DNA of 53,412 nucleotides from Nitrospirota bacterium. GTDB lineage: Bacteria > Nitrospirota > JAOUDF01. The DNA is taken from positions 1 through 53,412 of the forward strand of contig JAOUDF010000001.1 of assembly GCA_029859385.1 (NCBI GenBank), given 5' to 3'. The notes beneath the pieces were generated by a model. That model was not told the origin of the DNA and made no database searches. It saw only the letters and a program-made list of their open reading frames with translations. Position numbers and translations under genes: made by a program. Below, piece after piece: positions 32,967 through 51,535 of the stretch; within the stretch, counting starts at the first letter, position 1; the number at the start of each line of letters is the position of its first letter.

Positions 32967-33665
32967 TTGAAATATCTAGGAAACCTGCTTCTGCTTTCCC
33001 TCCCGTTTTTCGCGGCATGCGCCGCCCTTGACGCCCCTGATCAACCCTCCGTGGACCCGGCCCCGATACAGGCATCAAAAAACCAGAAATTGTCTTTTCA
33101 GGACAGGTTGGAGATGGCGGAGGCGTATGACCGGCACGGCCTTTCCGACAAGGCTTATGAAGAGTACAAGACGGCCCTGTCTCTGGAGCCGGATAATGAA
33201 AAAGTATTGGTTGCGCTGGTAAGAAACGCCAGCAACACTACGAGGTACGAAGAGGCGGAGACCTATTGCCGGAGGGCCCTGGAGCTCAACCCCCGTCAAC
33301 AGGAGATGCTTTATTATCAGGGATGGCTGTCGGTAAAGCTCAGAGAGGATTATGGCGCAGCCCAGGCTTCCATTGACAGGGCCATTGAGATGGCTACGCT
33401 GAAGAAGCCGTTTTTCATGCAGACAAAGGGGCTGTTTCTTGTCGAGGAAGGACGGAATGAGGAGGCGGCCGCCATATTCAGGGCGGCAATCACCGAGGCC
33501 GACAGAACACAAATGCCGGACAAGGAGCGCGCATACCTGAAGCTGAGCCTGTACAAAAATCTGGGGCGTGCCTTAAGAAAGATGGGACGGGAAGACGAGG
33601 CTCAGGAGGCCCTTACCCATGCCTATGGTATTGCAAACAGTCTTGGGGTTAGTTCGATAGATTGA
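32967..33665 (+). CDS. TPR-repeat lipoprotein (first gene of the secretion-machine cluster)
   Basis: Signal/lipobox MKYLGNLLLLSLPFFAAC (TTG start), followed by TPR-like helical repeats (AYEEYKTALSLEPDNEK, AETYCRRALELNPRQ). Confidence 0.65.
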   Translation: MKYLGNLLLLSLPFFAACAALDAPDQPSVDPAPIQASKNQKLSFQDRLEMAEAYDRHGLSDKAYEEYKTALSLEPDNEKVLVALVRNASNTTRYEEAETYCRRALELNPRQQEMLYYQGWLSVKLREDYGAAQASIDRAIEMATLKKPFFMQTKGLFLVEEGRNEEAAAIFRAAITEADRTQMPDKERAYLKLSLYKNLGRALRKMGREDEAQEALTHAYGIANSLGVSSID

Positions 33666-33740: not shown

Positions 33741-34952
33741 ATGCCTCGTTATTTCTGCAAGCTTGGGCGTCCTGACGGGAGGATTGAGGAGCAGGTCATA
33801 GAGGCGATCGATGCCGACTCCCTCCGGATGAGCCTTGAAGACAAGGGGTTTCTTGTCCTGAGCTTTCGTGAAAAGGGCGGTCTCCCCCTGCACCTCGACG
33901 AACTGCTTTTAAAGAAAGGGGTAAGCTCCAAGGAATTTCTGGTCTACAACCAGGAGTTCATCACCCTTGTAAGGGCGGGGATGCCTATCGTCAATGCCCT
34001 TGACGTGGTTTCGCGCAGGGTTGCCAACAAGCATTTCAAGGCGGTCCTCGACGAGATGAAAAAAGAGATCAGGGCCGGGCTTGCCCTCTCCGATGCGGCC
34101 TCGCGCCACCCCTCGATATTCCCCGATCTTTATGTGGCAACCGTCAGGTCGGGAGAGAAGAGCGGCGACCTGGTAGTGGTCCTGGGGCGCTACGTGCGCT
34201 ATCTGAAAAGGTTGATCGCCCTGCGCCGCAAGGTGTTGAGCGCCATGACCTACCCGGTCTTTCTGCTTTTGATACTGGGTGCGCTCCTTGCCTTCCTTCT
34301 TCTGTATCTGGTGCCGACCTTCTCCGGCATCTACGCCGATTTCAAAGGCGACCTGCCGCTGGCAACGAAGATCCTTATCACGACCACTCAGGCAGGAAAG
34401 GCTTTTGCCCTGCCGATCATACTGGCGCTGATATCCTTGGTAGTTGCGGCAGTACTCTGGTACAGGACCGATAAGGGACGCCTGTTCTTCGATTCGGCGA
34501 AGTTGCGGGTACCTTTTCTCGGGTCGGTGCTGGAGCTTTATGCCGTCTCCCAGTTTACCCGTACCCTTGGCTCGCTGCTGGGGGGCGGTGTGCCGCCGGT
34601 AGGCGCCCTCGATATGGCATCGGCTTCGATCCCCAACCGGGCGCTTTCCGCAAAATTGATCGAGGCGGTCTCCCGGGTGCGGGAAGGGGGGAGTATCTCC
34701 GCGGCGCTGGAGAAGACCGGTGTAGTCCCCGAGATGACGGTACGGATGATCGAAGTCGGCGAATCATCGGGAGCGCTCGAGGACATGCTGGGCGAGATCT
34801 CCGATTTTTACGAGGATGAGATCGAGACGAAGCTCTCGACGCTTACTTCCCTGATCGAACCGGTGCTCCTCCTTTTCATGGGAATCGTCATAGGGGGGAT
34901 TGTGGTTGTAATGTATCTGCCGATATTTAATCTGGCGGGGACAGTACGTTAA
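33741..34952 (+). CDS. gspF: T2SS/T4P inner-membrane platform protein (GspF/PilC family)
   Basis: 403 aa. Duplicated T2SSF repeats (FTRTLGSLLGGGVPPVGALD, EPVLLLFMGIVIGGIVVVMYLPIFNL) and three TM segments. Confidence 0.88.
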   Translation: MPRYFCKLGRPDGRIEEQVIEAIDADSLRMSLEDKGFLVLSFREKGGLPLHLDELLLKKGVSSKEFLVYNQEFITLVRAGMPIVNALDVVSRRVANKHFKAVLDEMKKEIRAGLALSDAASRHPSIFPDLYVATVRSGEKSGDLVVVLGRYVRYLKRLIALRRKVLSAMTYPVFLLLILGALLAFLLLYLVPTFSGIYADFKGDLPLATKILITTTQAGKAFALPIILALISLVVAAVLWYRTDKGRLFFDSAKLRVPFLGSVLELYAVSQFTRTLGSLLGGGVPPVGALDMASASIPNRALSAKLIEAVSRVREGGSISAALEKTGVVPEMTVRMIEVGESSGALEDMLGEISDFYEDEIETKLSTLTSLIEPVLLLFMGIVIGGIVVVMYLPIFNLAGTVR

Positions 34953-34965
34953 TCGACGGAAGCAG

Positions 34966-36666
34966 ATGATGAAGAAAAAGCTTGCTGAAATCCTGGAAGA
35001 GATGGGCTTCATCGATGCCGACCAGATGAGAGGGCTGCTCCCCCTCGCTGAGGAAGCGGGCAAGAAGCTTGGGACGCTCCTGCTTGAAAAAGGGGTGGTG
35101 ACCGATGTCCAGCTGGCCCAGGCACTGGCGGCCCAGCGGGGGATGCGTTACCTCGACCTGACCGGTTTCCGGATATCGCCGGTCTTCTTCGAGTCGATAC
35201 CGGTGGATATCATGTACCGCTACCAGTTCGTCCCCTGCGAGGAGAAAGACGGACGGCTTATCGTGGCCATCGCCGACCCGGGCGACCTCTTCAGGATGGA
35301 CGAGCTGGAGGTCCTGCTGGAGATGCCGGTCGATTTCGTGGTCTCCACGGCGCGGGAGATCGGCGAGACGCTGAAGCGAAGCGAGGGGACCCAGGCGATC
35401 CTCAAGGAGGTGTCGGAGGACTTCGTCATCGGCGCAGCCGCCGAGGACGAGGAAACGGTCCTCGCTGAGGATCTGATCAAGGGTACCAGCCCCATCATCA
35501 AGCTGGTGGACACCATCGTCCTCAACGCGATCCAGAAGCGGGCCAGCGATATTCATATAGAGGCGACCGACAAGGGGGTAATCGTTAAATACCGTATCGA
35601 CGGCGTCCTCTACAATGCCATGGACCCCATCGACTCCCAGCACCACCGCACCATCGTCTCCCGCATCAAGGTCATGTCCGAACTCGATATCGCCGAGACG
35701 CGGATCCCGCAGGACGGCCGCTTCAAGGTCCGGCTCAAGAACAAGGGGATCGACTGCCGTGTCTCCATACTGCCCAGCGTCTTCGGCGAGGACGTGGTCA
35801 TCCGTATCCTCGACAAGGAATACCTGATGACCGAGTTCGCGCAGCTCAAACTGGAGCCGCTCGGCTTCGACGAGGAGGACCTGCGCAAGTTCAGGAAGAG
35901 CATCCTTGAGCCCTACGGCATGGTGTTGGTGACCGGCCCTACGGGAAGCGGCAAGACCACGACGCTCTACGCCGCCATCTCGGAGATATATACGGACGAG
36001 GACAAGATCATCACCATCGAAGACCCGGTGGAATACCAGTTGCGGGGCATTCTGCAGATACCGGTCAACGAGAAGAAGGGGCTTACCTTTGCGAGGGGAC
36101 TGCGCTCCATCCTCCGCCACGACCCCGACAAGATCATGGTGGGAGAAATCCGCGACCCCGAAACGGCCCAGATAGCCGTCCAGTCGGCCCTTACCGGTCA
36201 CCTCGTCTTTACCACGGTGCATGCCAACAATGCCTTTGACGTCATCGGCCGCTTCACCAACATGGGGATCGAGCCGTACAATTTTGTCTCGTGCCTTAAC
36301 TGCATCCTGGCCCAGCGTCTGGTGCGTTCGATCTGCCTCAACTGCAAGACGACGGTGGAACATCCCGAACAGGTTTTTGTCGATGCCGGCCTGGACTACA
36401 ACAACTACCGGGACCATCCTTTCTATGAGGGCAAGGGGTGTGTCGAGTGCAACTGGACGGGGTACAAGGGGCGGCAGGCCATTACCGAATTTCTCGACCT
36501 TTCCGACCGCATCCGCGAACTGATCCTCGACAAGCGGCCGTCGTCGGAGATCCGTCGCATTGCCGTGGAAGAGGGGATGACGTCTCTGAGGGCTTCGGCA
36601 GTGAGAAAGGTGCTGGCGGGGATTACTACCATCAAGGAAATCAACAGGGTCACCTTCGTTGAATAG
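34966..36666 (+). CDS. gspE: T2SS/T4P assembly ATPase (GspE/PilB/MshE family) with N-terminal MshEN-type domain
   Basis: Walker A VTGPTGSGKTTT, Asp box, Walker B MVGEIRD, tetracysteine CLNCKT...CVECNWTGYKGR. N-terminus KLGTLLLEKGVVTDVQLAQALAAQ. Confidence 0.92.
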   Translation: MMKKKLAEILEEMGFIDADQMRGLLPLAEEAGKKLGTLLLEKGVVTDVQLAQALAAQRGMRYLDLTGFRISPVFFESIPVDIMYRYQFVPCEEKDGRLIVAIADPGDLFRMDELEVLLEMPVDFVVSTAREIGETLKRSEGTQAILKEVSEDFVIGAAAEDEETVLAEDLIKGTSPIIKLVDTIVLNAIQKRASDIHIEATDKGVIVKYRIDGVLYNAMDPIDSQHHRTIVSRIKVMSELDIAETRIPQDGRFKVRLKNKGIDCRVSILPSVFGEDVVIRILDKEYLMTEFAQLKLEPLGFDEEDLRKFRKSILEPYGMVLVTGPTGSGKTTTLYAAISEIYTDEDKIITIEDPVEYQLRGILQIPVNEKKGLTFARGLRSILRHDPDKIMVGEIRDPETAQIAVQSALTGHLVFTTVHANNAFDVIGRFTNMGIEPYNFVSCLNCILAQRLVRSICLNCKTTVEHPEQVFVDAGLDYNNYRDHPFYEGKGCVECNWTGYKGRQAITEFLDLSDRIRELILDKRPSSEIRRIAVEEGMTSLRASAVRKVLAGITTIKEINRVTFVE

Positions 36667-36704: not shown

Positions 36705-37661
36705 ATGATCTTTTTTTCTTCGACGGCGCCATCGGTGGGCATTGAAGTTACTGCCACCTCCCTCAGGGGGGTACGGTTGGCTGCAAAGGGGCGGCAACGG
36801 GTGGTGGCGGCCAGGGCCTTCGTGGACCTGCCGTCCGGCCTGGTTACCGGGACCTTCAGCCGACCGAACGTAGCCGACGGCGCTCTTTTCCGGGAGCACC
36901 TGGCGCGTCTTTGCACCAATCTCGGTGCCGGACAGGACAGGGTAGCTCTTGCCCTTCCCGATGCCGCGGCCAGGGTGCATCTTATGGCCTTTGAGACCCT
37001 CCCGCGCAAGGAGAGTGAGCTGCGGGATATTATCGTCTGGCGGCTCAAGCGGGACAACCTCCTGCCCTTTGAACCCGAGGAGGCCCGCGTCGTCTATCAG
37101 ATCATGGGCGGCGAGAAGGCCAAAGGGGAGATTCCCGTATTGGCGTCGATCATGAGACGTGATGTGCTTGAGCAGTATGTCTCTCTGTGCCAGGAGGCCT
37201 CGCTGGAGCCGATGACGGTGGATATCGCGTCGTTTCAGGGCGCCAATTTCTTCCACGACGAGATGCGGCGGCATGTCCCCGGCAGTGAAACCAGGGCGCT
37301 TGTTCAGTGTGAGGAAAAGCGGGCCAGCCTCATGGTCTTCGATGGTGATATCCTTGTCTTTTTCCGTTCCAAGGAGACGGGGGCGGGGACGGAAGGGGCT
37401 GCCGATGCCGTAATGGCAACATTGCAGTCGTCGCTGCACTATTACAATGAGCAGCGGAAGAATGAAAAGCCGATTGCGGCGTATTGTATTGCCGGCCATG
37501 AAAAGAGGATGGACTGGTGCGGGTGGCTGCGAAATGAACCCGGAGTCCGCCTGATCTCGCTGGATGCGGAAAAGTGCGTGGAGCGGGAGGCTGGCGTTTC
37601 GGAAGACCGGTCCGGTGAATACTGCGCGGCGACAGGGGCGGCGCTGGGGAACAGGGGATAG
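36705..37661 (+). CDS. PilM-like actin-fold assembly protein
   Basis: 318 aa. N-terminus VGIEVTATSLRGVRLA. Position directly before PilN/PilO-like genes. Weak but consistent PilM/GspL-cytoplasmic-domain pattern. Confidence 0.6.
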   Translation: MIFFSSTAPSVGIEVTATSLRGVRLAAKGRQRVVAARAFVDLPSGLVTGTFSRPNVADGALFREHLARLCTNLGAGQDRVALALPDAAARVHLMAFETLPRKESELRDIIVWRLKRDNLLPFEPEEARVVYQIMGGEKAKGEIPVLASIMRRDVLEQYVSLCQEASLEPMTVDIASFQGANFFHDEMRRHVPGSETRALVQCEEKRASLMVFDGDILVFFRSKETGAGTEGAADAVMATLQSSLHYYNEQRKNEKPIAAYCIAGHEKRMDWCGWLRNEPGVRLISLDAEKCVEREAGVSEDRSGEYCAATGAALGNRG

Positions 37662-37675
37662 GCAGGGGAGCCCGG

Positions 37676-38266
37676 ATGAGATTTCAGACCAATTTTCTGA
37701 GAGAACGGGAACAGCAGACAAGGAGGGCAGGTACGGCGCTCTCCGTGGTGTTGGTGGTTCTTGTCCTGATCTTTCTCGCCAATATCGTCATGTACTTCAC
37801 CTATCGGGACAGGGCGGGCGAGGCGAGCAAGCAGGAAGCCCTTCTCGAAAACCAGATACGGCAGTATGAGCAGGAGGTGAAGGCGGGGCCGGACCGAGCA
37901 TTCCTCGCCCGTTTCAAGGGGGAGGTGGCTTTTGCCAATTCGCTCATTCTCAGAAAGAGTTTTTCATGGACCAGCCTGCTGGGCCGGATCGAGAAGGCCG
38001 TGCCCAAGGGCATATCCGTGACGAAGATTGCGCCGGATTTCAAGACCATCGAGGGTAAGGAGGAGGAAGAGGTCGTCATGCTGTCCGGCACGGCGCGGTC
38101 GCTGGAGGCCTTGACAGGGCTCATTATCAACCTTGAGGATTCGGTGCATTTCCGGGAGGTGTTTCTCCTGAACCAGTCCTTAAGAGACGACAAAAGCGGA
38201 CGCGAGCTGATTGCCTTCGATATCCGTATGCAGTACCTCCCCGGCGGCGAGGAGGGCGGCGAATGA
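37676..38266 (+). CDS. PilN-like bitopic inner-membrane protein
   Basis: N-terminus INFL-like (FQTNFLRERE), a single TM (ALSVVLVVLVLIFLANIVMYF), then a coiled coil. 196 aa. Confidence 0.6.
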   Translation: MRFQTNFLREREQQTRRAGTALSVVLVVLVLIFLANIVMYFTYRDRAGEASKQEALLENQIRQYEQEVKAGPDRAFLARFKGEVAFANSLILRKSFSWTSLLGRIEKAVPKGISVTKIAPDFKTIEGKEEEEVVMLSGTARSLEALTGLIINLEDSVHFREVFLLNQSLRDDKSGRELIAFDIRMQYLPGGEEGGE

Positions 38267-38862
38267 AATTTTTTCTCCAAAAAGAGCGCAAGCTTGTGAT
38301 GGCGACCATCGCCCTCGCCGTGGTGAACCTGTTGTTTTACCTCGCGCTGGTCTATCCGATGCAGAGCATGGTCCACAACAAGGAAGACGACTATAGCCGT
38401 GAGCGGCAGCGTCTGGTGGACCTCAGAAATCAGGCGGCACTGGCAAAAACGGTGGTGGAGAGCAAGGCGGCGCTTGCCGAATTGTGGGAGCGGTTGCCCG
38501 AGAAGGATGATCTGCCGGCGTTCATAGGCAGCTTCCACGCCCTTGCGAAGGAGTACGACCTGAGGATTCCTACGGTAAAGTACGAGCCTAAAAAGGAGAA
38601 GGGGGAGGTAATGACCAGTCTCTTCATTACCTTGCCGGTGACGGGGAATTATCCCGATATCCGCGGTTTTATCCAGGACATGGAGTTGTCCGACAGGCTG
38701 ATCATGCTCGAGAATATCGGGATTTCCGCGTCGGGCAGCGACGGCGGTGGAGGCACCCAGCTTCAATTGACCATGACGACCTATATCAGGCCCGCGATCA
38801 TGCCGGAGTTTACGGTGCCGATGCCTGCCGAACAACAGGAAAGAACGAGAGGCAGAAGGTGA
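38263..38862 (+). CDS. PilO/GspM-like bitopic inner-membrane protein
   Basis: Single TM (ATIALAVVNLLFYLALVYP), a coiled coil, then a ferredoxin-like tail (LFITLPVTGNYPDIRGFIQDMELSDRLIMLENI). ATGA overlap upstream. Confidence 0.6.
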   Translation: MKFFLQKERKLVMATIALAVVNLLFYLALVYPMQSMVHNKEDDYSRERQRLVDLRNQAALAKTVVESKAALAELWERLPEKDDLPAFIGSFHALAKEYDLRIPTVKYEPKKEKGEVMTSLFITLPVTGNYPDIRGFIQDMELSDRLIMLENIGISASGSDGGGGTQLQLTMTTYIRPAIMPEFTVPMPAEQQERTRGRR

Positions 38863-39440
38863 GAGGAAAACAGCTGCTCTTTAGCGCACTTCTGGTAATG
38901 CTGTTGGGGCTGGCTGCCTACCGCTTCTATTCCCCTGATATGCCTGCGGGCGTTTTGAGGGCTCCGGCGGAAGGGAGGCGGGCTGCCGCAGACCTCAAGG
39001 ATTATACGGTGAGGATCGATCTTTTGCGGGTGGCCCGGGAGGAATTGGCGGATGGGGTCGTCAATATCTTTGCTTCCATTTCCCGATCGGGTGGGTCGAA
39101 AGGCGAAAAGGCGGGGGCAAAAGGGGCCGATGAAGTAAAGCCCCCCGCTCCGTCCGAACAGCCGGCGGTACAGCTTCCGCCGCCTCCTCCGCCGAAGACG
39201 CCGGAGCAGCTGGCCGCCGAGCGGTCGGTGCAGGAACTGGAGCGTTTTCGCTTCCTCGGGTTTGTGCGAAAGGGCGACGGCAGGAGCCTGTTTCTGGGCC
39301 GGGGCGACGAACTGCTCGTGGTGGGAGAGACGGAGAAGGTAAAAGGGCTTTACAATATCAAGCTTATGGGCAAGGATTACCTGATCCTGGCGGACCCGGC
39401 AACCGGGGTGGAAAAAAGGATCGAATTGACAGGGAAGTAG
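38859..39440 (+). CDS. PilP/GspC-like protein (N-terminal anchor, Pro-rich linker, C-terminal beta domain)
   Basis: GTG start overlapping the upstream stop. TM LLFSALLVMLLGLAAY, PPPPPPKTPEQ linker, FRFLGFVRKGDGRSLFLGRGDELLVV tail. Sits directly before the secretin. Confidence 0.45.
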   Translation: MRGKQLLFSALLVMLLGLAAYRFYSPDMPAGVLRAPAEGRRAAADLKDYTVRIDLLRVAREELADGVVNIFASISRSGGSKGEKAGAKGADEVKPPAPSEQPAVQLPPPPPPKTPEQLAAERSVQELERFRFLGFVRKGDGRSLFLGRGDELLVVGETEKVKGLYNIKLMGKDYLILADPATGVEKRIELTGK

Positions 39441-39502: not shown

Positions 39503-42238
39503 ATGGGCGCTTTTAAGCGGGTGGGAGTATTGCTGGCGATGCTGGCGGCATTGGCCGGATGCGGTACCTCCCGGGTCGTCGAACGGGGAGAGACCTACCT
39601 TCAGAACCAGCAGTGGGACCTGGCGTGGGCGGAATACAAGGATGCCTACCAGCGAGACCCATCGAACAAGACTTACCGGGCGGGATACGAGCGCGCAACC
39701 ATCGAGGCCACCAACCTTCATCTGAGGCAGGGGGCGGAAGCCCTTCGTCAGGGCCGGTTTGAAGAGGCGATCGAAGAACTGAAGAAGGGGCTGATGGTCT
39801 CTCCGGCCCATGAAGGGATGCAGACTGCCATGAGGGAGGCCCTGGCGAAGAAGGAGGCCAGGGAGCGCTATGCAACGGGAAGGTCCCTCGCCGACGGCGG
39901 CAGGCTCAAGGACGCGATGAGGGAGCTGAAGAAGGCCTCGGAACTTGATCCTGACTACCAGGAACCCGGGAAGCTGATCGGGCAGATAGAGGATGTTCTT
40001 TCGAAAGAGAAGTCCGAAGATCCGCTGACCCTGGCATCGGACAAGCCCATTACCCTCAACTTCAAGAATACCAATGTTAGGGACGCCTTCGAACTGCTGG
40101 CCAAGATGGCCAGCATCAACGTCCTCTTCGATGAAGAGGTGCGGTCGCAACAGGTAACGGTCTTTGCCAAGGACATCACCTTCAAGCAGGCCCTCCGGCT
40201 CCTCCTTTCGACCAACAAGCTTATTATGAAGCGGGTGACGCGGGATACCATCATCATCATCCCGAAGAACCGGGCCAAGATAGACCAGTATCAGGACCTT
40301 CAGATCCGCACCTTCTACCTCAACAATATCGAGGCGAAGGATATGGTCAATATCCTCAGGACCATGCTGGAGACCAAGAAGATACTGATCAATGCCAAGA
40401 GCAATACGATCATCCTGCGGGACTCCCCGGAGAAGCTGAAGCTGGCGGAGAAGATCATCGAGGCCAACGACCGCGCCGATGCGGAGATCATGCTCGACGT
40501 GGAAATACTGGAAGTCGGCCGCACCGACACCTACAAGTCGGGCATAAAGCTGGGTTCCACGACTCCTGCGGCGGCAACCTGGATCAAGGATTCGGTGGGG
40601 ACCATAGGGACTACAGGCATCGACCTGTTTACCCTGAAAAATCTTGGACCTGAGTCGTTCCTCTTTGTTCTGCCCAGCCTTACCATCGACCTGCTCAAGA
40701 CTAATTCCAACGCCAAGACCCTGGCCAATCCCAAGCTGCGGGTCATCCACAAGAAGCCCGCCAAGATACTCATAGGCCAGAGGGTGCCGATCCAGGTCTC
40801 GACGACCACAACCTCCGCAGGCACCTCGTCGGGGACGACCTCGTCGAACTTTGAATACAAGGACGTTGGTATCAAGCTCAATGTGGAGCCCGATGTCCAT
40901 CTCAACAACGAGATCACCATGAAGCTGGGCCTCGAGGTGAGCACCCTGGGGAACCTTGTGGAGTTCGGCGGCGGTTCCAAGCAGTATATCTTCGGTACCC
41001 GCAGTGCCGACACGGTGGTACAGCTCCGGGATGGAGAGACCACCATCATTGGCGGCCTTATACAGGATGACGAGAGAAAGACGGGGAACCGCATCCCCGG
41101 CCTTGCCGATGCACCGGTGGTCGGGCGGATGTTCGCGGCACGGGATGATGAGACGGTCAAGACCGATATCCTCATGTCGATCACTCCGCATCTGGTGAGG
41201 AGGATGGAGCTGCCCAGTGTCGACGTCCAGTCGTTCTGGTCGGGGACCGACGACTCCTACGATACCGAGCCGGTCTTCTACTTTGACGACGAGGTCGAGA
41301 TTCCCGATGATGCACCGGCTGGCGCGCCGACGGTCAAGATGCCCGGCAAGACCCCGGCACAGGCTCCTCCGACGCCGATGCCCGCTCCCACGCTTCTTCC
41401 CGCTCCGGCCGTGAAGCCCCAGGCAGCTCCGGCGCCTGCCGCCCCGGTTACGCAACCGGCCCCGGCTCCTGCACCGCTGGCCCCTGTTCGTCCCGAGCCT
41501 GTTCCTGCACCGGCGCCCGCTCCAGCTCCCGCACCCGCTCCAGCCGCGCCTGCTGCTCCCGAGCCTGTAAAGGCCCCGGAGCCGCCGTCTCAGCCGACCT
41601 CTGCCGTCGAGGAACCGGAACCGGCCCCGCCGGCAGTTGAGGAAGTTCAGCCTGTAGCAAAGGCGGCAGCTCCCGCCCCCCAACCCCAACTGGTGGCGCC
41701 TGCTCCTGCTCCTCAATCGGTACCCGTACCAGCTCCCGCGCCTGTGCCCGCTCCTCAGGTACCGGCAGTTCCCGTGACTGCACCGTTGCCAACGGCAGAG
41801 GCAGCGACCCCGCTGTCGCTCTCCCTGGCGAGCATAGGGGTCAAGCCGAACAGTATCCAGATGACTGCCGGGGCCTCGGTAGGGGTTGAGATCACCGCGG
41901 CTGACGTGAAGAACCTTGCCCTTGCGGATATCTCCGTGACCTACGACCCCGAGGTCGCCTCTTTCCAGAATATTACCGAAGGGGGATTTCTCAGGAGCGA
42001 CGGCAAGCCGACCTCCTTCCTTTTTTCCGTAAACAGCAAGGCCGGAAAGGTAGATATTTCCCTCAGCCGGGTGGGAATGGAAAAAGGGGTGAACGGTGCG
42101 GGGACGCTGGCATTCCTGGTGTTTCAGGGGAAAAAGGCAGGCGATTCAACGATAAACCTGAAAGTCAACAAGCTGCAGAATGCAGACCGGGGTAACCTCG
42201 ACCACAAGGTGGTCAATGCCAGCCTGACGGTAAAGTAG
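39503..42238 (+). CDS. secretin lipoprotein with N-terminal TPR region, secretin core, long Pro/Ala linker and C-terminal cohesin-like domain
   Basis: Lipobox LAALAGC. TPR-like N-terminus. Secretin_N (ITLNFKNTNVRDAFELLAKMASINVLFDEEV). Secretin core (VLANPKLRVIHKKPAKILIGQRVP...TTIIGGLIQDDE...IPGLADAPVVGRMF). PA-rich 41306-41810. Cohesin-like 41811-42235 (ISVTYDPEVASF...GTLAFLVFQGKKAGDSTINL). Confidence 0.85.
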   Translation: MGAFKRVGVLLAMLAALAGCGTSRVVERGETYLQNQQWDLAWAEYKDAYQRDPSNKTYRAGYERATIEATNLHLRQGAEALRQGRFEEAIEELKKGLMVSPAHEGMQTAMREALAKKEARERYATGRSLADGGRLKDAMRELKKASELDPDYQEPGKLIGQIEDVLSKEKSEDPLTLASDKPITLNFKNTNVRDAFELLAKMASINVLFDEEVRSQQVTVFAKDITFKQALRLLLSTNKLIMKRVTRDTIIIIPKNRAKIDQYQDLQIRTFYLNNIEAKDMVNILRTMLETKKILINAKSNTIILRDSPEKLKLAEKIIEANDRADAEIMLDVEILEVGRTDTYKSGIKLGSTTPAAATWIKDSVGTIGTTGIDLFTLKNLGPESFLFVLPSLTIDLLKTNSNAKTLANPKLRVIHKKPAKILIGQRVPIQVSTTTTSAGTSSGTTSSNFEYKDVGIKLNVEPDVHLNNEITMKLGLEVSTLGNLVEFGGGSKQYIFGTRSADTVVQLRDGETTIIGGLIQDDERKTGNRIPGLADAPVVGRMFAARDDETVKTDILMSITPHLVRRMELPSVDVQSFWSGTDDSYDTEPVFYFDDEVEIPDDAPAGAPTVKMPGKTPAQAPPTPMPAPTLLPAPAVKPQAAPAPAAPVTQPAPAPAPLAPVRPEPVPAPAPAPAPAPAPAAPAAPEPVKAPEPPSQPTSAVEEPEPAPPAVEEVQPVAKAAAPAPQPQLVAPAPAPQSVPVPAPAPVPAPQVPAVPVTAPLPTAEAATPLSLSLASIGVKPNSIQMTAGASVGVEITAADVKNLALADISVTYDPEVASFQNITEGGFLRSDGKPTSFLFSVNSKAGKVDISLSRVGMEKGVNGAGTLAFLVFQGKKAGDSTINLKVNKLQNADRGNLDHKVVNASLTVK

Positions 42239-42245: not shown

Positions 42246-42716
42246 ATGGAGAGGACCGGAATCAGCCGCAACAGCGGGCTGACGCTTATCGAACTGGTGG
42301 TCGTCGTGGCGGTGCTGAGTATCCTGGCCGCCGTTGCGCTGCCGGTGGCCAAGGCCACGGTAAAGCGGACCAAGGAGATAGAGCTGCGCCGCACCTTGCG
42401 GGAGATGCGCACCGCCATCGACGAGTACAAGAAGTTCTACGATGAAAAGAAGATTTCCCAGATTTCGGGCGGCACCGGCTATCCCAAGGACCTCGATACG
42501 CTGGTGCAGGGTGTGGACATTGTGGGACAGGTGAATCTGAAGAAGAAGTTTCTCAGAAGGATCCCGCCCGATCCCATAACCGGTACGACCGAGTGGGGGA
42601 TGCGGTCGTACGCCGATGCCCCCGACTCAACGGCATGGGGGGGGGAGGATGTCTATGACATCTACACCACCAGCGAGGAAACGGCCCTGGACGGCTCACA
42701 GTACAATACATGGTAA
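42246..42716 (+). CDS. GspG-like pseudopilin (prepilin-type N-terminal cleavage/methylation domain)
   Basis: SG|LTLIELVVVVAVLSILAAVALP prepilin signature with Glu5. Downstream YPKDLDTLV...IPPDPITG resembles the GspG body. Confidence 0.82.
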   Translation: MERTGISRNSGLTLIELVVVVAVLSILAAVALPVAKATVKRTKEIELRRTLREMRTAIDEYKKFYDEKKISQISGGTGYPKDLDTLVQGVDIVGQVNLKKKFLRRIPPDPITGTTEWGMRSYADAPDSTAWGGEDVYDIYTTSEETALDGSQYNTW

Positions 42717-42836: not shown

Positions 42837-43223
42837 ATGACACCATTAAATAAAAACCAGCGCGGTTTTACGCTTCTCGAACTGATGATCGTCATCGCCA
42901 TCGTGGGTATTCTGGTGACGCTGGCCGTCCCCAGTTTCAGGACGGCGACGATAAAGGCTCGCGAGGCGGTCCTCAAGGAAGACCTCTACGTCATAAGGAG
43001 CGTCATCGACCAGTATTACGCCGATAATGGCACCTATCCCCCCACTCTCCAGGACCTTGTGGCCAAACAGTACCTCAGAAGCATTCCCATTGACCCGTTT
43101 ACCTCGTCTGCAAGCACGTGGGAGGAGGTCATCGATACGGCGGCGGAAACGTCCGGGGTGTTCGATGTCAAGAGCGGCTCGGACAAGGTCGGTCTCAATG
43201 GCGTACCCTACAGGGAATGGTAG
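42837..43223 (+). CDS. GspG-like pseudopilin 2
   Basis: QRG|FTLLELMIVIAIVGILVTLAVPSF with Glu5. YYADNGTYPPTLQDLV..YLRSIPIDPF is classic GspG-like. Confidence 0.85.
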   Translation: MTPLNKNQRGFTLLELMIVIAIVGILVTLAVPSFRTATIKAREAVLKEDLYVIRSVIDQYYADNGTYPPTLQDLVAKQYLRSIPIDPFTSSASTWEEVIDTAAETSGVFDVKSGSDKVGLNGVPYREW

Positions 43224-43809
43224 GCCGGGGCGTCTGCCCTGGATTTCATATCTCAAATTTCATACCTCAGATTTTTGCCTGGACAATCGCGGCTTCACCT
43301 TTGTCGCGCTGGCCGTCATCATCTTCATCATGGGGATATCCCTCCTCGCGGTAAGGCCCACCTGGACCGTGATCATGAAGATAGAGAAGGAGCAGGAGCT
43401 TCTCTATGTCGGAAAGGCGTTCAAGGATGCCATAAAGCGCTATCATGATGCCGGCCCACCCAACAACAAGACATTGCCTGCGCGCCTGGAAGACCTCCTC
43501 AGCGATCCCCGTTCACCAAGCGCGAAAAAATATCTGCGGAAGATATATCGCGACCCCATGACGGGCGAGGACGACTGGGTCGTGGTGATGGACGGGGCCC
43601 AGCGCATAAGGGGTATCCACAGCCGCAGCGAGGAGGAGCCCTTCAAGCAGGACCACTTCCCCGACGAATTTCAGCAGTTTGCCAACAAGAAGAAATACAG
43701 CGAGTGGGTGTTCGAGTATAATCCCGTGCCGGCCGGGACAACGACCGGCCAGGGTCAGTCGACGGCTACCGGAAATCTGACCACGCAAACCTCTCCCTCA
43801 TCGCAGTAA
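43198..43809 (+). CDS. atypical pseudopilin-like protein (prepilin-like hydrophobic N-terminus but no Glu5; start uncertain)
   Basis: NRG|FTFVALAVIIFIMGISLLAV, then ...YHDAGPPNNKTLPARLEDLL...YLRKIYRDPMTG (GspG-like body). The only in-frame ATG before the TM is 43198 (26-nt overlap with the upstream gene). CTG 43279 is an alternative. Confidence 0.55.
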   Translation: MAYPTGNGRPGRLPWISYLKFHTSDFCLDNRGFTFVALAVIIFIMGISLLAVRPTWTVIMKIEKEQELLYVGKAFKDAIKRYHDAGPPNNKTLPARLEDLLSDPRSPSAKKYLRKIYRDPMTGEDDWVVVMDGAQRIRGIHSRSEEEPFKQDHFPDEFQQFANKKKYSEWVFEYNPVPAGTTTGQGQSTATGNLTTQTSPSSQ

Positions 43810-44203: not shown

Positions 44204-47200
44204 ATGCTCCAACGCTCAGCATTCCGGAAGTCCCTGCTTGTAACTGTCTCATCATTCGTTCTTCTGGCATCGACCGCTTTCGCCGACGTAGCACCCGTAA
44301 CCGTCTCTTCCGTCCAGTCCTCCGCCAACACCGGCGCGGCGGCCACCAGCATACCCATCGACGTGCCTCCGGGGCGCAAAGGCATTCAGCCGAATCTCGC
44401 GCTTACCTATAATTCCAACAGCCCCAACGGCTGGCTTGGGGTGGGGTGGAGCCTCGACATGGGCGCCATTCAGCGGTCCACCAAGCGGGGGGTCAGCTAT
44501 AGCGCTAACGACTATGTTTTTACCTCGGGCGGTGGTTCGTCTGAACTTGTGGCGCGTGGGGATTGGGGCAGCAACTACTACGGCGCGAAGAGCGAAGGGG
44601 CGTTTTCGAAATACTATTACGATTCATCCACCGGCGGCTGGGTCGTTACCACCAAAGACGGCACCAAGTACTACTACGGCACGACCGCTGCGTCACGGCA
44701 GGACAGCGCGCTTGGCGTGTTCAAGTGGAGCCTCGACAAGGTGGTGGATACCAACGGCAACTACATGACGGTGAGTTACTGGAAGGACCAGGGGGAGATA
44801 TACCTCGACCGGATTGATTACACGGGGAATGGTGGGGTAAGCCCGACGAATTATGTGAAGTTTTATCGAGAGGCGAGGACTGATGCGCCAGCCATGTATG
44901 GAAGTGGCTCTAGCGTCAAAACTGCCTATCGCTTGAAGACAATTGATATTGTGGCGAGTGGAAGCAGGGTACACGTCACTACGTTGTCATATGTAAATAG
45001 CGGGACATCAAATGTTTCTCTCCTGCTTGGTGTGCAGCATTTCGGTGAAGATGCAACAATAGATGCAGGCGGTACGGTAACAAGTGGTTCTTCCTTGCCG
45101 GCGACAAGCGTTGCAAATCACACCGCTGTCAATGGTTCATACACTGGTTGGAAGTTTCCCTATATTCTCAGGTCGGTCTGCTCGCCATATGTGGGGGATT
45201 TTAATGGTGATGGTAAAGCTGATGTATTAAGAGCGTGTGATGATCCTAATGATAACTATGTATTCCTCTCAACTGGCACTGGCATTACACCCGGCTGGCC
45301 GTTTAATTATAATCTTCGGGCGTCCAGCGTGCCTTATCTAGGTGATTTTAACGGTGATGGGAAAACTGATGTTCTAAGGGTCCATGACAATCCGGCATAC
45401 AACTATGTGTTTCTTTCGACAGGCAGCGGGTTTGATCTCACGCTCAACTGGCCGTTTAATTATAATTTGAAAACAGGCTGTGAAGGTCGCCTGGGTGATT
45501 TCAACGGAGACGGTAAGACAGATGTGCTGCGGGCTTGCGACAATGCAGCTTCAAATTATGTATTTTTGTCCACAGGCAGCAGCTTTGTTGAAGGCTGGCC
45601 GTTTGGCTATAATCTTCGGGCAGCCAGCGTGCCTTATCTAGGTGATTTTAACGGTGATGGGAAAACTGATGTTCTAAGGGTGCATGACAATCCTGCGTAC
45701 AATTATGTGTTTCTTTCAACGGGCAGCGGGTTCGATCTCACGCTCAACTGGCCGTTTAATTATAATATGAAAACAGGCTGTGAAGGTCATTTGGGTGATT
45801 TCAACGGAGACGGCAAGACGGATGTGCTCAGGGCTTGCGACAATGCAGCTTCAAATTATGTATTTTTGTCCTCGGGCAGCCGCTTTATTGAAGGCTGGCC
45901 GTTTAATTATAATCTTCGGGCGTCCAGCGTGCCGTACCTGGGTGACTTCAACGGAGATGGAAAGACGGATGTTTTGCGTGCACATGACAATCCTGCATAC
46001 AACTATGTGTTTCTTTCAACGGGCAACGGGTTTGATCTTTCGCTCAATTGGTCGTTCAATCGTGATATTAAAACAACCTGTCTTCCGTATTTAGGTGATT
46101 TCAATGGTGAGGGTAAGGTTGATGTACTTAGGGCTTGCGCTAATGCATGGTTGAATGATGTCTGGTTGTCAACACCATCTGTAACAGACTTAATCTCCAC
46201 CCTCACCAACGGCCAAGGCGCCACCACCACCATCACCTATAAGCCTTCATCGTCCTACACCAACGGCCTGCTCCCCTTCATCGTCCAGACCGTGCAATCC
46301 ATCGCTGTCAACGACGGCAACGGCAACACCTCCACCACCAACTACACCTATTCCGGCGGCCAGTACGACCCCACCGACCGCGAGTTCCGCGGCTTCAGTT
46401 ACGTAAAGGCCACCGCGCCCAACGGCGCCACCACCGAGACCTGGTTCAAGCAGGACGCAGTATACAAGGGGCTGCCCTACGACCAGATCGTCAAGGACTC
46501 ATCGGGCAACACCTACAGCCGCACGGTGAACAGCTATCTCTCAACCACGCCCTACACCGGCGTCAGTTTCCCGTATCTTTCCCAGCGTGATGACTACGTT
46601 TACGACGGCGGCACGACCTACAAGCGCCTCACCACCGGCTTCACCTACGACAGCTACGGCAACCTCACCCGCAAGTACCACTACGGCGATGCGGCCGTAT
46701 CCGGCGACGAGCGGGACGAGAACACCGAGTATAGCTACGACACCGCCAACTGGATCGTCTCACTACCCAGCCACAGCTGGGTGCTCGACTCCGGCGGGGT
46801 AAAGAAGGCCGAAGGCTGGTTTGCCTATGATGTAAAAGGCAACCTCCTCACCGAGACCCGCTGGTTAAGCGGCGGCGCCAATCCGGTGACCACCTACACC
46901 TACGACAGCTACGGCAACCGCGCAACGGTGAAGGACGCCAAAAACAATACCACCACCATCGCCTACGACACCGTTGCCCAGACCTACCCTGTAACCATCA
47001 CCAATGCCCTGGGGCATTCGGCCACCAAGACCTATGATTACCGCTACGGCAAGCCCCTCACCGAGACCGACGCCAACGGCAACAGCACGTCGTACACCTA
47101 CGACGTCTTCGGCCGGGCAACCAGGGTCACCGGCCCGCTGGATTCCGGCTCCACCTACGGTACCGTGACTTACTCCTACGATAACTTCGGCACCGTCGGC

Positions 47201-49912
47201 AGCCAGAGGGTAACCACCTACGCCACCGAGCAGAGCGGAACATCAAACGTCATCTGGAGCGAGAGCTACTTCGACGGCCTCGGCCGCACCTTCAAGACCC
47301 GCAAAGAAGGCCCCGACAGCAAGGTAATCGTAAGCCAGAATACCTTTGACCAGCGCGGCCTCGTCACCGCCAAGTCGCTGCCCTACTTCGAAGGGCAGGA
47401 GACCGCCCGCTGGACCACCTTTACCTACGACGCCGTAGGCCGGGCAACCCGGGCCACCAATCCCGACGCCACCTATGCCACCACCGCCTACGACAAAGGC
47501 CGCACCACCATCATCAACGCCAACGGTCAGCAGAAGGTGGAAGAGAAAGACGTCTACGGCAGGCTGGTAAAGGTGGAGGAGTATAACGGCGGCTCGCTCT
47601 ACGCCACCACCAATTACCAGTACGACGTAATGGGTAACCTCAGAGGCACCACCGACGCCAAGGGCAACCAGAGCGTCATCAACTACGACACCCTGGGCAG
47701 AAAGACCTCCATGAACGACCCCGACATGGGAAGCTGGACCTACGCCTACGATGCCAACGGCAACCTCACCACCCAGACCGACGCCAAGGGCCAGACCATC
47801 ACCTTTGCCTACGACGCGCTCAATCGCATAACCCTTAAGGATTACCCCGCCGGGGCCGGTACCGACGCCGTCTACACCTACGACGAAACCACCTCCACCA
47901 ACGGCAAGGGCAGGCTCACCACCCTCACCGACGCATCCGGAACCAGCAAGTACTGGTACGACGCCATGGGCCGGGCCACCAAAAGCACCCGCACCATCGA
48001 CAGCGTAGCCTACACCACCGAGACCACCTACGACGCCCTGTCGCGCATCACCAGCGTCAAGTACCCCGACAACGAGACCGTCACCTACAGCTACGACACC
48101 GGCGGCAACCTCTCACAGATAGGGAGCTACGGCACCTACGCAGGCTACAACGCCCTCGGCCAGGCAAGCACCATCACCTACGCCAACGGCGTCACCACCA
48201 CCTACCAGTATCTCAGCACCAACAACCGACTCTACAGCATCACCACGGGCATCGGTACCCGGGGGCTCATGAACACCAGCTACGCTTACGACAACGTCGG
48301 CAACATCCTCGGCATCACCGACTACCTCGACAGCGGCAGAAACCAGACCTTCGGCTACGACCACCTCAACCGCCTCACCCAGGCCGCCAGCACCGCCTAC
48401 GGCACGCTAAGCTATGGGTATAACGAGATCGGCAACATGACCGCCAAGGAAGGGGTAATCTACACCTATCCCGCAAACGGCAGCGCCCGGCCCCACGCCG
48501 TCACCGCCACCTCCGACGGCAAGAGCTACGCCTACGACAACAACGGCAACATGACCACCGACGGCCTGCGGACCATCGCCTACGACTACGACAACATGCC
48601 GTCGTCCGTAACCCTTGGCGCAACCACCACCAGCTTCGTCTACGACGCCTCGGGCCAGCGGGTAAAGAAGATCACGCCGACCGCCACCACCGTCTACGTC
48701 GGCAAGCTCTACGAGTGCGTGGGTACAAGCTGCACCAAGTACATAATGGCAAACGGCAACAAGCTGGCGTGGAAGAACAGCGCGGGCACCTTCTACTACC
48801 ATCAGGACCACCTGGGCTCCAGCCGGGTCATCACCGACGCCAGCGGCACCAAGGCCGAGGAGATCACCTACCTGCCCTACGGCGCCACCCTCACCGACAG
48901 CGGCAACGGCACGGTATCGGTGGAGCACCGCTTCACCTCGCAGGCGTACGATGCCGAGACGGGGCTTTACTACTACAATGCGAGGTACTACAATCCGGGG
49001 CTGGGGAGGTTTGTGAGTGCGGATAGTATTGTGCCCGACCCTGAAGACCCGCAGGCGTTTAACCGGTACAGCTATACGCTGAACAACCCGGTGATTTATA
49101 CTGATCCGACGGGGAATGCGACTGAGTTCTACGCGACGGTTTCGCAGACAGCTTATAGTGGTTCGAGTATCTCGATCAGTTCAAGCTCGTCTTGGTTCTA
49201 TACCCCGAGCTTTTACAGGCCTGCACCGGCACCTGCAACGAAGCCAGCCCCAAAACCAGCACCAGCGCCTGCGCGGAGCAGTAACGTTGCAAGCACTGTC
49301 GGGAACAGCTATAGTAATTTCTCTCTGCCGACGCCGGTTGTAAATTCGATAAGCGGCCTTGTAAATAATGTGCTCATTCCTGTCGGGAGCGCGGTTATTC
49401 CGGGCTGGGGCGCCTATGACGAGTTTTCGGAAGGCAATTACCTTTATGGCCTGTTCTCCCTTGGAACAGATCTGCCTATATTTAAGCCGGCAAAGTGGCT
49501 AGTAAAAGGTGCAGGTGCTGTCGGGGATGCAATAAAGGGCGCAAATAGGTTTGCGACTCGGCCAGGTGAGGCCGTATTCTGGTCAGGCATTCGGAATGGT
49601 GATGTAGCCGCTTCAAAATGGGTTGCTCAACACGGAGGCGCAACCCTTGAGACAACAGTGGCTGCTCGCGGAATCGAATTACCCGTTTGGGATCCGAGTA
49701 GTCCAACGGTAGTTGACGCTTGGCGACAGGCGTCTAAGACCTTTGCGACTGGGGCGAGTGGGAATGTACGCGTCCTACAGACAGATTATGTCCGCATAAA
49801 TTCGGCGTGGGCAGAGGTTGAGTTTCCTGCGCTTAAAGCCAATCCGAACGTGACCTCAATTAGAGCGGTAAACCCGGAGACCGGCGTGGAGACGTTGTTA
49901 TGGTCGAAGTAA
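44204..49912 (+). CDS. Sec-signal SpvB-N / FG-GAP beta-propeller / TcdB-mid / RHS-repeat polymorphic toxin (Tc-toxin B-C fusion-like) with divergent C-terminal cargo
   Basis: Signal peptide MLQRSAFRKSLLVTVSSFVLLASTAFA|DV. SpvB-type GIQPNLALTYNSNSPNGWLGVGWSLDMGAIQRS. Seven GDFNGDGKTDVLR blades. TcdB-mid type YSGGQYDPTDREFRGFSYV. Dozens of YD repeats (YTYDSYGN, YAYDANGNLT). RHS core ARYYNPGLGRFVSADS...NPVIYTDPTGN. Confidence 0.93.
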   Translation: MLQRSAFRKSLLVTVSSFVLLASTAFADVAPVTVSSVQSSANTGAAATSIPIDVPPGRKGIQPNLALTYNSNSPNGWLGVGWSLDMGAIQRSTKRGVSYSANDYVFTSGGGSSELVARGDWGSNYYGAKSEGAFSKYYYDSSTGGWVVTTKDGTKYYYGTTAASRQDSALGVFKWSLDKVVDTNGNYMTVSYWKDQGEIYLDRIDYTGNGGVSPTNYVKFYREARTDAPAMYGSGSSVKTAYRLKTIDIVASGSRVHVTTLSYVNSGTSNVSLLLGVQHFGEDATIDAGGTVTSGSSLPATSVANHTAVNGSYTGWKFPYILRSVCSPYVGDFNGDGKADVLRACDDPNDNYVFLSTGTGITPGWPFNYNLRASSVPYLGDFNGDGKTDVLRVHDNPAYNYVFLSTGSGFDLTLNWPFNYNLKTGCEGRLGDFNGDGKTDVLRACDNAASNYVFLSTGSSFVEGWPFGYNLRAASVPYLGDFNGDGKTDVLRVHDNPAYNYVFLSTGSGFDLTLNWPFNYNMKTGCEGHLGDFNGDGKTDVLRACDNAASNYVFLSSGSRFIEGWPFNYNLRASSVPYLGDFNGDGKTDVLRAHDNPAYNYVFLSTGNGFDLSLNWSFNRDIKTTCLPYLGDFNGEGKVDVLRACANAWLNDVWLSTPSVTDLISTLTNGQGATTTITYKPSSSYTNGLLPFIVQTVQSIAVNDGNGNTSTTNYTYSGGQYDPTDREFRGFSYVKATAPNGATTETWFKQDAVYKGLPYDQIVKDSSGNTYSRTVNSYLSTTPYTGVSFPYLSQRDDYVYDGGTTYKRLTTGFTYDSYGNLTRKYHYGDAAVSGDERDENTEYSYDTANWIVSLPSHSWVLDSGGVKKAEGWFAYDVKGNLLTETRWLSGGANPVTTYTYDSYGNRATVKDAKNNTTTIAYDTVAQTYPVTITNALGHSATKTYDYRYGKPLTETDANGNSTSYTYDVFGRATRVTGPLDSGSTYGTVTYSYDNFGTVGSQRVTTYATEQSGTSNVIWSESYFDGLGRTFKTRKEGPDSKVIVSQNTFDQRGLVTAKSLPYFEGQETARWTTFTYDAVGRATRATNPDATYATTAYDKGRTTIINANGQQKVEEKDVYGRLVKVEEYNGGSLYATTNYQYDVMGNLRGTTDAKGNQSVINYDTLGRKTSMNDPDMGSWTYAYDANGNLTTQTDAKGQTITFAYDALNRITLKDYPAGAGTDAVYTYDETTSTNGKGRLTTLTDASGTSKYWYDAMGRATKSTRTIDSVAYTTETTYDALSRITSVKYPDNETVTYSYDTGGNLSQIGSYGTYAGYNALGQASTITYANGVTTTYQYLSTNNRLYSITTGIGTRGLMNTSYAYDNVGNILGITDYLDSGRNQTFGYDHLNRLTQAASTAYGTLSYGYNEIGNMTAKEGVIYTYPANGSARPHAVTATSDGKSYAYDNNGNMTTDGLRTIAYDYDNMPSSVTLGATTTSFVYDASGQRVKKITPTATTVYVGKLYECVGTSCTKYIMANGNKLAWKNSAGTFYYHQDHLGSSRVITDASGTKAEEITYLPYGATLTDSGNGTVSVEHRFTSQAYDAETGLYYYNARYYNPGLGRFVSADSIVPDPEDPQAFNRYSYTLNNPVIYTDPTGNATEFYATVSQTAYSGSSISISSSSSWFYTPSFYRPAPAPATKPAPKPAPAPARSSNVASTVGNSYSNFSLPTPVVNSISGLVNNVLIPVGSAVIPGWGAYDEFSEGNYLYGLFSLGTDLPIFKPAKWLVKGAGAVGDAIKGANRFATRPGEAVFWSGIRNGDVAASKWVAQHGGATLETTVAARGIELPVWDPSSPTVVDAWRQASKTFATGASGNVRVLQTDYVRINSAWAEVEFPALKANPNVTSIRAVNPETGVETLLWSK
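45293..46130 (+). repeat. in-frame 300-bp tandem DNA repeat (two propeller blades per unit), about 2.8 units, inside the RHS gene
   Basis: GGCTGGCCGTTT... restarts at 45293, 45593 and 45893 (exact 300-nt period). Units 1 and 2 differ at roughly one position in twelve by eye. The region is visibly more AT-rich than the flanking YD-repeat DNA. Confidence 0.85.
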
Positions 49913-51450: not shown

Positions 51451-51535
51451 CCGTGGGGGGCCCCCTATGGAGGACCCCCAGCATAGGGAGTATATTTTAC
51501 TTGCTCCCACTTTGGGAGCATGGTAAGGTTTGCCT

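Follow-up and report, generated by a model that had tools for sequence, protein, structure and literature searches.

The lipoprotein secretin encoded at positions 39503-42238 of a 53,412-nucleotide stretch of Nitrospirota bacterium DNA (hereafter the window, meaning the whole stretch analysed) carries a cohesin domain at its C-terminus, and there is hardly any doubt that both the cohesin and the secretin to which it is fused are genuine. Our comparison of related proteins and loci revealed that this secretin family has long possessed the cohesin tail, which is shared across phyla and has occasionally been lost. The family is a subfamily in which a spacer and a cohesin replace the pilotin-binding S-domain and the N-terminus is a tetratricopeptide repeat (TPR) lipoprotein. 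The combination of secretin and cohesin is visible in the automatic Pfam annotation of hundreds of database entries and is undescribed in the literature searched, in which no paper mentioned a cohesin on a secretin or discussed GSU1778, the putative locus tag of PulQ, the lipoprotein secretin of Geobacter sulfurreducens. The open reading frame (ORF) is arranged as follows.

39503-42238, forward strand: lipoprotein secretin ORF, 911 residues, ATG start, no internal stop.
39503..39562, forward strand: signal peptide and lipobox (L-A-G-C, residues 17-20, with Cys20), MGAFKRVGVLLAMLAALAGC, read from the sequence; the Cys is invariant in 79 aligned members.
39563..40027, forward strand: TPR-like helical-repeat domain, residues 21-175 (Pfam TPR_2, TPR_11 and TPR_14 above cut-off; AlphaFold2 model).
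40028..41227, forward strand: N0/STN and Secretin_N periplasmic domains and outer-membrane secretin core, residues 176-575 (Pfam; Protein Data Bank (PDB) matches).
41228..41302, forward strand: acidic/aromatic post-core segment QSFWSGTDDSYDTEPVFYFDDEVEI, 25 residues, 576-600 (family alignment).
41303..41827, forward strand: Pro/Ala-rich spacer, 175 residues, 601-775 (composition).
41828..42238, forward strand: C-terminal cohesin, residues 776-911 (nucleotides 41828-42235), and the stop codon (Pfam, AlphaFold2, Foldseek).

Membership of the protein in the secretin superfamily (PF00263) follows from matches above cut-off to Secretin (E 5e-41), Secretin_N (E 1e-11) and STN (E 1.5e-8), and the Pfam domains are placed along the chain in the order TPR (about 27-152), STN (205-255), Secretin_N (269-326), Secretin (398-566) and Cohesin (783-903). 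The best PDB sequence matches of the core were secretins of type II secretion systems (T2SS), of GspD/XcpQ type, and PilQ secretins, with E-values from 1e-24 to 1e-16. At the level of the whole protein, the NCBIfam models for GspD (TIGR02517), PilQ (TIGR02515) and MshL gave 172.4, 149.2 and 109.7 bits against cut-offs of 351, 284 and 250, respectively, which places the protein in a secretin subfamily distinct from these three. The end of the secretin core, which the first-pass annotation of this DNA had put at ...SITPHLVRRMELPS, agrees with both the translation of the ORF and the Pfam boundaries. No S-domain family was matched by Pfam or NCBIfam, and what lies past the core is the 25-residue segment, the spacer and the cohesin. 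The 25-residue segment stands where other secretins have the S-domain; it had no Pfam match, and the family alignment shows hardly any variation at its F, W, S, G, T, E, D, P and F. GspD, PulD and OutD have in common with the window protein the N0/N1/secretin core and a C-terminal extension beyond the barrel that serves as a protein-binding element. Their S-domain, however, is a short helical peptide that binds a small lipoprotein pilotin (PulS, AspS), whereas the window protein has the 25-residue segment, the spacer and a 136-residue beta-sandwich.

The C-terminal module had been described from its sequence pattern as cohesin-like, and this assignment was confirmed both by domain search and by structure prediction. 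Against a gathering cut-off of 24.1 bits, Pfam Cohesin (PF00963) reached 37.7 bits (E 2.9e-9) when the tail was searched by itself and 33.4 bits within the whole protein. The AlphaFold2 model of the tail, built from an alignment with 96 family members, is all-beta with 9-10 strands and of high predicted quality (mean predicted local distance difference test score (pLDDT) 93.7, predicted template modelling (TM) score 0.84). When this model was compared with the PDB by Foldseek, all of the top 50 matches were cohesins (E 5e-12 to 7.5e-8, mostly with TM-scores of 0.7-0.83), the lowest TM-score among them, 0.57, belonging to two cohesin-like modules of Clostridium perfringens. Among the matches are CohA2 of C. 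acetobutylicum, CipA cohesins of C. thermocellum (1aoh, 1ohz) and a non-cellulosomal cohesin, 2xdh, from Archaeoglobus fulgidus. With cellulosomal type I cohesins and 2xdh the tail has in common the nine-strand beta-sandwich (TM 0.77-0.83) and a sequence signature, 'vG..v.....n...l.g....l.YDP.vl', through which a profile of 18 family tails also matched cohesins among the PDB sequences (best E 4.5e-7). The single tail searched against the PDB by sequence alone was uninformative (best E 0.32), and a word-indexed homolog search with the tail alone returned one fragment only. Unlike cellulosomal cohesins, the module of the window is present in a single copy, belongs to an outer-membrane channel of a diderm, is probably periplasmic and has no dockerin genes nearby. 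As to other features of scaffoldins, Pfam detected a single cohesin and no carbohydrate-binding module (CBM), S-layer homology domain or dockerin in the secretin.

That every sequence and fold match is a cohesin and not a CBM bears on the proposal that the cohesin fold acts as a CBM-like tie to peptidoglycan, in place of the AMIN domain of PilQ, or as a guide or hold for exopolysaccharide. Cohesin probably shares its Pfam grouping with beta-sandwich families that bind carbohydrates; Pfam detected neither an AMIN domain nor any other peptidoglycan-binding domain in the secretin family, the Pro/Ala spacer could cross the peptidoglycan layer, and secretins have recently been implicated in exopolymer secretion (PMC12475490). 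Yet no polysaccharide synthesis genes are conserved beside the secretion cassette to which the gene belongs. Cohesins, moreover, are not known to bind glycans, and a glycan-binding function is accordingly rated as improbable.

An exhaustive HMMER search with the tail profile recovered 9,699 cluster representatives at E<=1e-3, of which 2,242 also passed E<=1e-10. The best single-domain scores belonged to secretins, and the highest summed scores to multi-cohesin proteins with 3-12 repeats. These multi-cohesin relatives (P0122-P0130) often carry a CarboxypepD_reg domain and several have a type IX secretion system (T9SS) sorting tail; they come from metagenome-assembled genomes (MAGs) such as Candidatus Desantisbacteria. 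Judged from their sequences, the nearest non-secretin relatives of the tail cohesin look like surface scaffoldin-like proteins of uncultured diderm lineages.

The homolog search with the full protein yielded 773 relatives at E<=1e-10, the best 120 of which were compared in detail, and 82 related loci were fetched from Nitrospirota, Geobacteraceae/Desulfuromonadales and Acidobacteriota. In this survey of orthologous secretins the C-terminal module was present in 120 of the 120 best homologs (BLASTP, E 1e-19 to 1e-78, mostly at about 40% identity), most of which also carry precomputed Pfam assignments to Secretin, Cohesin and TPR together. An in-frame cohesin was found in about 75 of the 82 fetched loci. 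With the window cohesin as tblastn query, the tail was found in 20 of the 82; nearly all of the remaining loci encode tails of 220-360 residues, and in six divergent tails sampled from Acidobacteriota and Geobacter the sole Pfam match was Cohesin (21.8-29.2 bits). Genomes that represent single species place the family in Nitrospirota (Nitrospiria, Manganitrophaceae; up to 47% identity), in Geobacteraceae/Desulfuromonadales (about 33%) and in many Thermoanaerobaculia and other Acidobacteriota (28-34%). The first-pass annotation had treated the tail as a peculiarity of one gene, which it is not: the tail is family-wide across phyla, and only the Pro/Ala linker of about 170 residues is special to the small clade of the window. 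In five Nitrospirota loci (L005, L010-L013) the secretin aligns from its N-terminus through the whole core, has no cohesin and ends instead in a Pro-rich tail of 52-88 residues. These full-core secretins indicate that the cohesin is not needed to build the channel. The cohesin-less Nitrospirota clade offers a natural deletion series for comparing the role of the cohesin.

The same comparison disposes of the view that an assembly or frameshift error put the tail onto the secretin, or that the tail persists as a functionless relic. The window does come from a metagenome assembly, and its clade has diverged at many otherwise conserved positions. Against this, the ORF is uninterrupted, the same in-frame architecture recurs in independent assemblies as well as in the 120 best homologs, and wherever core and cohesin were both detected in a locus they share a frame with zero stops between them. 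The module is predicted with the high pLDDT given above, and within the clade of the window it is 64-88% identical, which indicates purifying selection. The frameshift or fusion alternative raised by the first-pass annotation is thus refuted, and we consider a decaying or artefactual fusion to be practically out of the question.

Along with the cohesin, the spacer was examined by composition and by family comparison, and both support the earlier description of a long, flexible Pro/Ala linker, whose reported limits (41306-41810, corresponding to residues 602-770) were accurate. Within residues 601-775 the fraction of Pro is 0.34 and that of Ala 0.27, the two together reaching 0.61 versus 0.12 in the remainder of the protein, and only 10 of the 175 residues are large and hydrophobic. 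The underlying DNA uses varied codons and contains only two tandem arrays, both short (scores 30-43), with no perfect tandem repeat, so that the spacer is not a slippage or assembly artefact. Across the family the spacer ranges from 51 to 208 residues (median 67, typically 60-70) and has no conserved sequence, which fits a flexible leash and not a fixed strut. Spacers of 167-208 residues with 26-31% Pro were found, among the best homologs, only in the window protein and its four closest relatives (P0001-P0004, 61-89% identity). Geobacter-type homologs independently have spacers of 106-176 residues that are rich in Pro, Ala and Thr.

At the opposite end of the protein, the signal peptide and the lipobox with its invariant Cys20 identify a liposecretin. 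The fusion of an N-terminal TPR region to the secretin, noticed in the first reading of the sequence, was borne out by Pfam TPR matches above cut-off and by a helical-repeat AlphaFold2 model (pLDDT 91.9) of eight helices, two of which are 27-28 residues long. Lipid-anchored TPR proteins linked to a secretin are known in PilF, PilW and Tgl, and the N-terminus of the window protein resembles them, with the difference that its TPR is fused to the secretin. The possibility that the TPR region is a fused PilF/PilW/Tgl pilotin was nevertheless unsupported and is kept as a loose analogy: Foldseek with the TPR model returned generic TPR proteins only, poorly superposed (TM 0.25-0.4), with no PilF or PilW among the top 50, and NCBIfam gave 17.3 bits for Tgl (E 0.0023, cut-off 225) and 16.1 bits for PilW (E 0.006, cut-off 154). 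The model suggests that the TPR-like domain may form an elongated strut from the lipid anchor down to the N0 ring. By analogy with HxcQ of Pseudomonas aeruginosa, the secretin is probably self-piloting by virtue of its lipid anchor, perhaps with assistance from the TPR, and this would explain both the missing pilotin-binding S-domain and a C-terminus free to gain a module. HxcQ, with which the window protein shares the lipobox, is a T2SS liposecretin that is self-piloted through its N-terminal lipid anchor and requires no separate pilotin or S-domain (Viarre et al. 2009, as cited in PMC12475490). The resemblance stops at the additional modules, since HxcQ is not known to have a TPR domain or a C-terminal cohesin.

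To locate the constrained parts of the cohesin, conservation was expressed as entropy over 116 family tails outside the clade of the window, and strands were numbered by their order in the predicted model, without coordinates. The most conserved elements are beta5, TSFLFSNN (0.07), the loop between beta6 and beta7 (0.18), beta6 (0.39) and beta3 (0.62), and strands beta1, beta2 and beta9 are variable (1.5-1.9). In cellulosomal cohesins the dockerin-binding sheet is made of strands 8-3-6-5, and from the model we infer that beta3, beta5 and beta6 correspond to three of the four strands of this canonical sheet. All eight residues of beta5 are about 99% conserved; its outward side chains are thus constrained too, which points to a binding surface beyond the folded core. 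At 18 positions with a family conservation of at least 90%, the clade of the window has residues other than the consensus; many of these positions lie on the beta3/5/6 face, and this departure coincides with the long spacer.

The secretin is the seventh gene of a co-directional cassette with the order F-E-M-N-O-P-Q-G-G-G, which comes after rpsB-tsf-pyrH-frr and whose other members are listed below.

33741-34952, forward strand: GspF-like platform protein (Pfam T2SSF, E 3e-60).
34966-36666, forward strand: GspE-like ATPase (Pfam T2SSE, E 7e-129, and MshEN).
36705-38862, forward strand: PilM-, PilN- and PilO-like proteins (Pfam PilM_2, PilN, PilO).
38859-39440, forward strand: PulP-like protein with a transmembrane anchor, a Pro-rich linker and a C-terminal beta domain (position conserved in relatives; no Pfam match).
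42246-42716, 42837-43223 and 43198-43809, forward strand: three GspG-like, major-type pseudopilins (Pfam N_methyl, weak T2SSG), the ORFs of the second and third of which overlap.

Pfam annotation of the window genes revealed no GspC, GspL or GspH-K in the cassette. By tblastn (E<=1e-5) the three pseudopilins match downstream of the secretin in 79, 78 and 59 of the 82 loci, and in loci with fewer pseudopilin genes the paralogous queries match the same gene. The same cassette was found in the related loci L002, L019 and L021. The same order, pulF-E-M-N-O-P-Q('secretin lipoprotein')-pulG-oxpG, has been tabulated for Pelobacter and Geobacteraceae (Aklujkar et al. 2012, PMC3543383, Table S4). Both in gene order and in its lipoprotein secretin (PulQ) the Geobacteraceae Pul/OxpG system is the same as the cassette of the window, which, as judged by gene order, is an atypical T2SS of this type. 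According to the same paper, which cites Mehta et al. 2006 ('atypical type II secretion system'), G. sulfurreducens requires its Pul system to secrete the multicopper oxidase OmpB and to reduce Fe(III)/Mn(IV) oxides. Homologs from Geobacter and Geobacteraceae MAGs align over their full length at about 33% identity and have a Pfam-positive cohesin tail as well as a Pro/Ala/Thr-rich spacer of 130-180 residues. The organism of the window belongs to a deep lineage, its FlhA sharing at most 65% identity with that of any named MAG (Deltaproteobacteria, Nitrospinota, Nitrospirae). Pfam scans and listings of the contig flanks revealed no OmpB-like multicopper oxidase in the window or in the flanks. 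PilM/N/O/P-type genes lie upstream of the secretin in the window, in L001, L002, L018, L019 and L021 and in Geobacter-type loci; in L006-L017 (Manganitrophaceae, Nitrospiria) this place is taken by different gene families, of about 308 and about 266 residues. Directly upstream of gspF the window encodes a 232-residue TPR protein (32967-33665) that has no counterpart in the 82 loci (tblastn, E<=1e-5).

In solved secretins (GspD, PulD, InvG) the core ends on the outer face of the barrel, on its periplasmic side and close beneath the outer membrane, so that the cohesins of this family should hang in the periplasm at that level. We tentatively favour, at somewhat less than even probability, a role of the module as a periplasmic dock at the channel. 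Each of the 12-15 subunits of a channel would dangle one cohesin into the periplasm on a flexible tether, which in the clade of the window (175 residues) would in principle be long enough to span most of the periplasm. The cohesins might then offer sites at the channel where a partner protein docks and is concentrated or retained, the likeliest partner being an exported protein with a dockerin-like or other cognate tag. Recognition would proceed through the conserved beta3/beta5/beta6 face, as cellulosomal cohesins bind dockerins. The four-fold variation of spacer length, the lack of a conserved spacer sequence and the existence of a clade without the cohesin fit an accessory, flexibly tethered dock and not a fixed structural element.

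The latter possibility was weighed as a structural or self-assembly role, in which the cohesins bind the neighbouring subunit, the TPR ring, PulP or each other and form a collar that stabilises, spaces or anchors the secretin in place of the S-domain/pilotin clamp. The position of the cohesin speaks for such a collar, as it sits where the S-domain, which staples subunits together and binds the pilotin, is found in other secretins. The secretin has interaction modules at both ends, TPR and cohesin, both of them highly conserved; no external partner is encoded near the gene, and the 60-70-residue spacer of most members keeps the module close to the barrel. A spacer reaching 208 Pro/Ala-rich residues is, however, hard to fit with a fixed collar, and the clade of otherwise full-length secretins that lost the cohesin indicates that it is not essential for assembly. 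In addition, the clade of the window changed the 18 conserved cohesin positions with no visible changes elsewhere in the secretin. A structural role is regarded as rather unlikely. If the partner does belong to the machine, the family would represent a new way to brace or pilot secretins, in which an N-terminal TPR with its lipid anchor and a C-terminal cohesin take over from S-domain and pilotin.

The search for a partner of the periplasmic dock yielded several observations that weigh against it. Within the window, strict and loose regular expressions for paired calcium-binding loops of dockerins matched only FG-GAP loops of an RHS protein; Pfam found no Dockerin domain in scans of nearly all window genes or in the listed flanks of the 94.8-kb ENA metagenome contig, and the fetched related loci contained no dockerin-like paired calcium-loop motif in the 10 kb on either side of the secretin. 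No neighbouring gene family was correlated with presence or absence of the cohesin across loci. The binding of cohesins to dockerins is typically very tight, a property better suited to permanent anchoring than to the transient hand-off of a substrate in the periplasm. Since the family blocks on beta5 and beta6 (TSFLFSNN, TVDIYMTRIGDVGG) do not align to cellulosomal cohesins and are thus family-specific, the ligand may also not be a canonical dockerin. Finally, for Geobacter, the supplement of Wilmoth et al. (PMC6199725) lists no dockerin on the laccase/cupredoxin/Fn3 (OmpB-like) entries.

The main text of the latter study can be read as stating that OmpB itself carries a dockerin, and this candidate was rejected, because the supplement puts the dockerin on separate Fn3-dockerin proteins (WP_014551707.1 of G. 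sulfurreducens and WP_039644186.1 of G. soli). The Geobacter Fn3-dockerin proteins are expressed during Fe(III) reduction (PMC6199725). Thus, at least one lineage with a cohesin-bearing PulQ is annotated with expressed Fn3-dockerin proteins, and these are possible, putative partners in Geobacter.

Such proteins could also be held outside the cell. Were the tail exposed at the surface, it would constitute a one-cohesin 'mini-scaffoldin' anchoring secreted dockerin-tagged proteins, such as metal oxidoreductases or the Fn3-dockerin proteins, beside the pore. Pro/Ala- or Pro/Thr-rich linkers are typical of surface scaffoldins, the nearest non-secretin relatives of the cohesin are multi-cohesin proteins sorted by T9SS and hence located at the surface, and the tightness of cohesin-dockerin binding suits permanent anchoring. 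Topology argues to the contrary: the C-terminus and S-domain are periplasmic in solved secretins, there is no evident route across the outer membrane for a folded 136-residue domain, and the usual spacer of 60-70 residues is short for a path through the channel. No dockerin was found locally either. In favour of surface display, OmpB, a protein that the Geobacter Pul system exports, has been assigned to the outer surface in a source that cites Qian 2007. On balance, surface display is viewed as unlikely.

A further reading assigns to the cohesin ring the function of the secretin's own substrate receptor, which would recognise a modular tag on exoproteins, dockerin-like or a new cognate module, and recruit them to the T2SS channel or retain them at the pore after export. 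We hold this reading to be doubtful, but its consequences would be considerable. How the T2SS selects its folded substrates is a long-standing open problem, with no linear signal found, and a secretin family that keeps a docking domain across at least three phyla offers a testable handle on substrate choice. If the substrate-receptor reading were true, the tag would be the first portable, domain-encoded targeting or retention signal for type II secretion, and a cellulosome-type docking pair would exist in the envelope of diderm metal-cycling bacteria (Geobacter, Manganitrophus and relatives). The family covers both Geobacter, where loss of the Pul/OxpG system abolishes OmpB export and Fe(III)/Mn(IV) oxide reduction, and the Mn-oxidising Manganitrophaceae. 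With this fusion, cohesins, known from scaffolds on the cell surface of monoderms and archaea, are extended to a channel of the outer membrane.

The RHS protein encoded downstream of the pseudopilins (44204-49912; 1902 residues with SpvB, FG-GAP, TcdB_midN and RHS repeats) was considered as a cognate substrate of the secretin. Its N-terminus, MLQRSAFRKSLLVTVSSFVLLASTAFA, resembles by eye a Sec-type signal peptide, and its C-terminal part of about 250 residues, following a Pro/Ala linker, shows a weak ADP-ribosyl-cyclase-like match below cut-off (E 0.0018). The candidate was rejected, as an RHS gene is nearby in only one of the 82 loci and that of the window lies in an insertion absent from L002. 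This insertion of about 8.5 kb relative to L002 (window 44204-52218) contains the RHS gene, a 105-residue ORF, an IS200-like Y1 transposase with a helix-turn-helix (HTH) tail, and a HigB toxin with an HTH antitoxin; in L002 the genes past the insertion point directly follow the pseudopilins, which identifies RHS, transposase and toxin-antitoxin genes as inserted. The 105-residue ORF beside the RHS gene is possibly an immunity protein. For an Rhs/Tc-like toxin exported by Sec in a diderm no route out of the cell is obvious, and its adjacency to a T2SS is intriguing and not conserved; Pelobacter Pul-2 also has an RHS neighbour (PMC3543383).

Elsewhere in the window, a sugar-modification island at 83-7768, with L084 upstream, is located among the flagellar genes flgK/L, fliD, flagellin, flaG and fliS. 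It encodes a TPR-GT41 glycosyltransferase, a nucleotidyl transferase, a 4,6-dehydratase, a C-methyltransferase, a 3,5-epimerase, an N-formyltransferase, a CmcI-type O-methyltransferase and a DegT aminotransferase, and probably serves to glycosylate flagellin with a deoxy-amino sugar that is formylated and methylated. The stretch that separates the flagellar genes from the secretion cassette contains, at 21849-27082, genes for two HD-GYP-type (HD_5) proteins in tandem, a FliK-like protein and a response-regulator diguanylate cyclase, which suggests control of motility by cyclic di-GMP.

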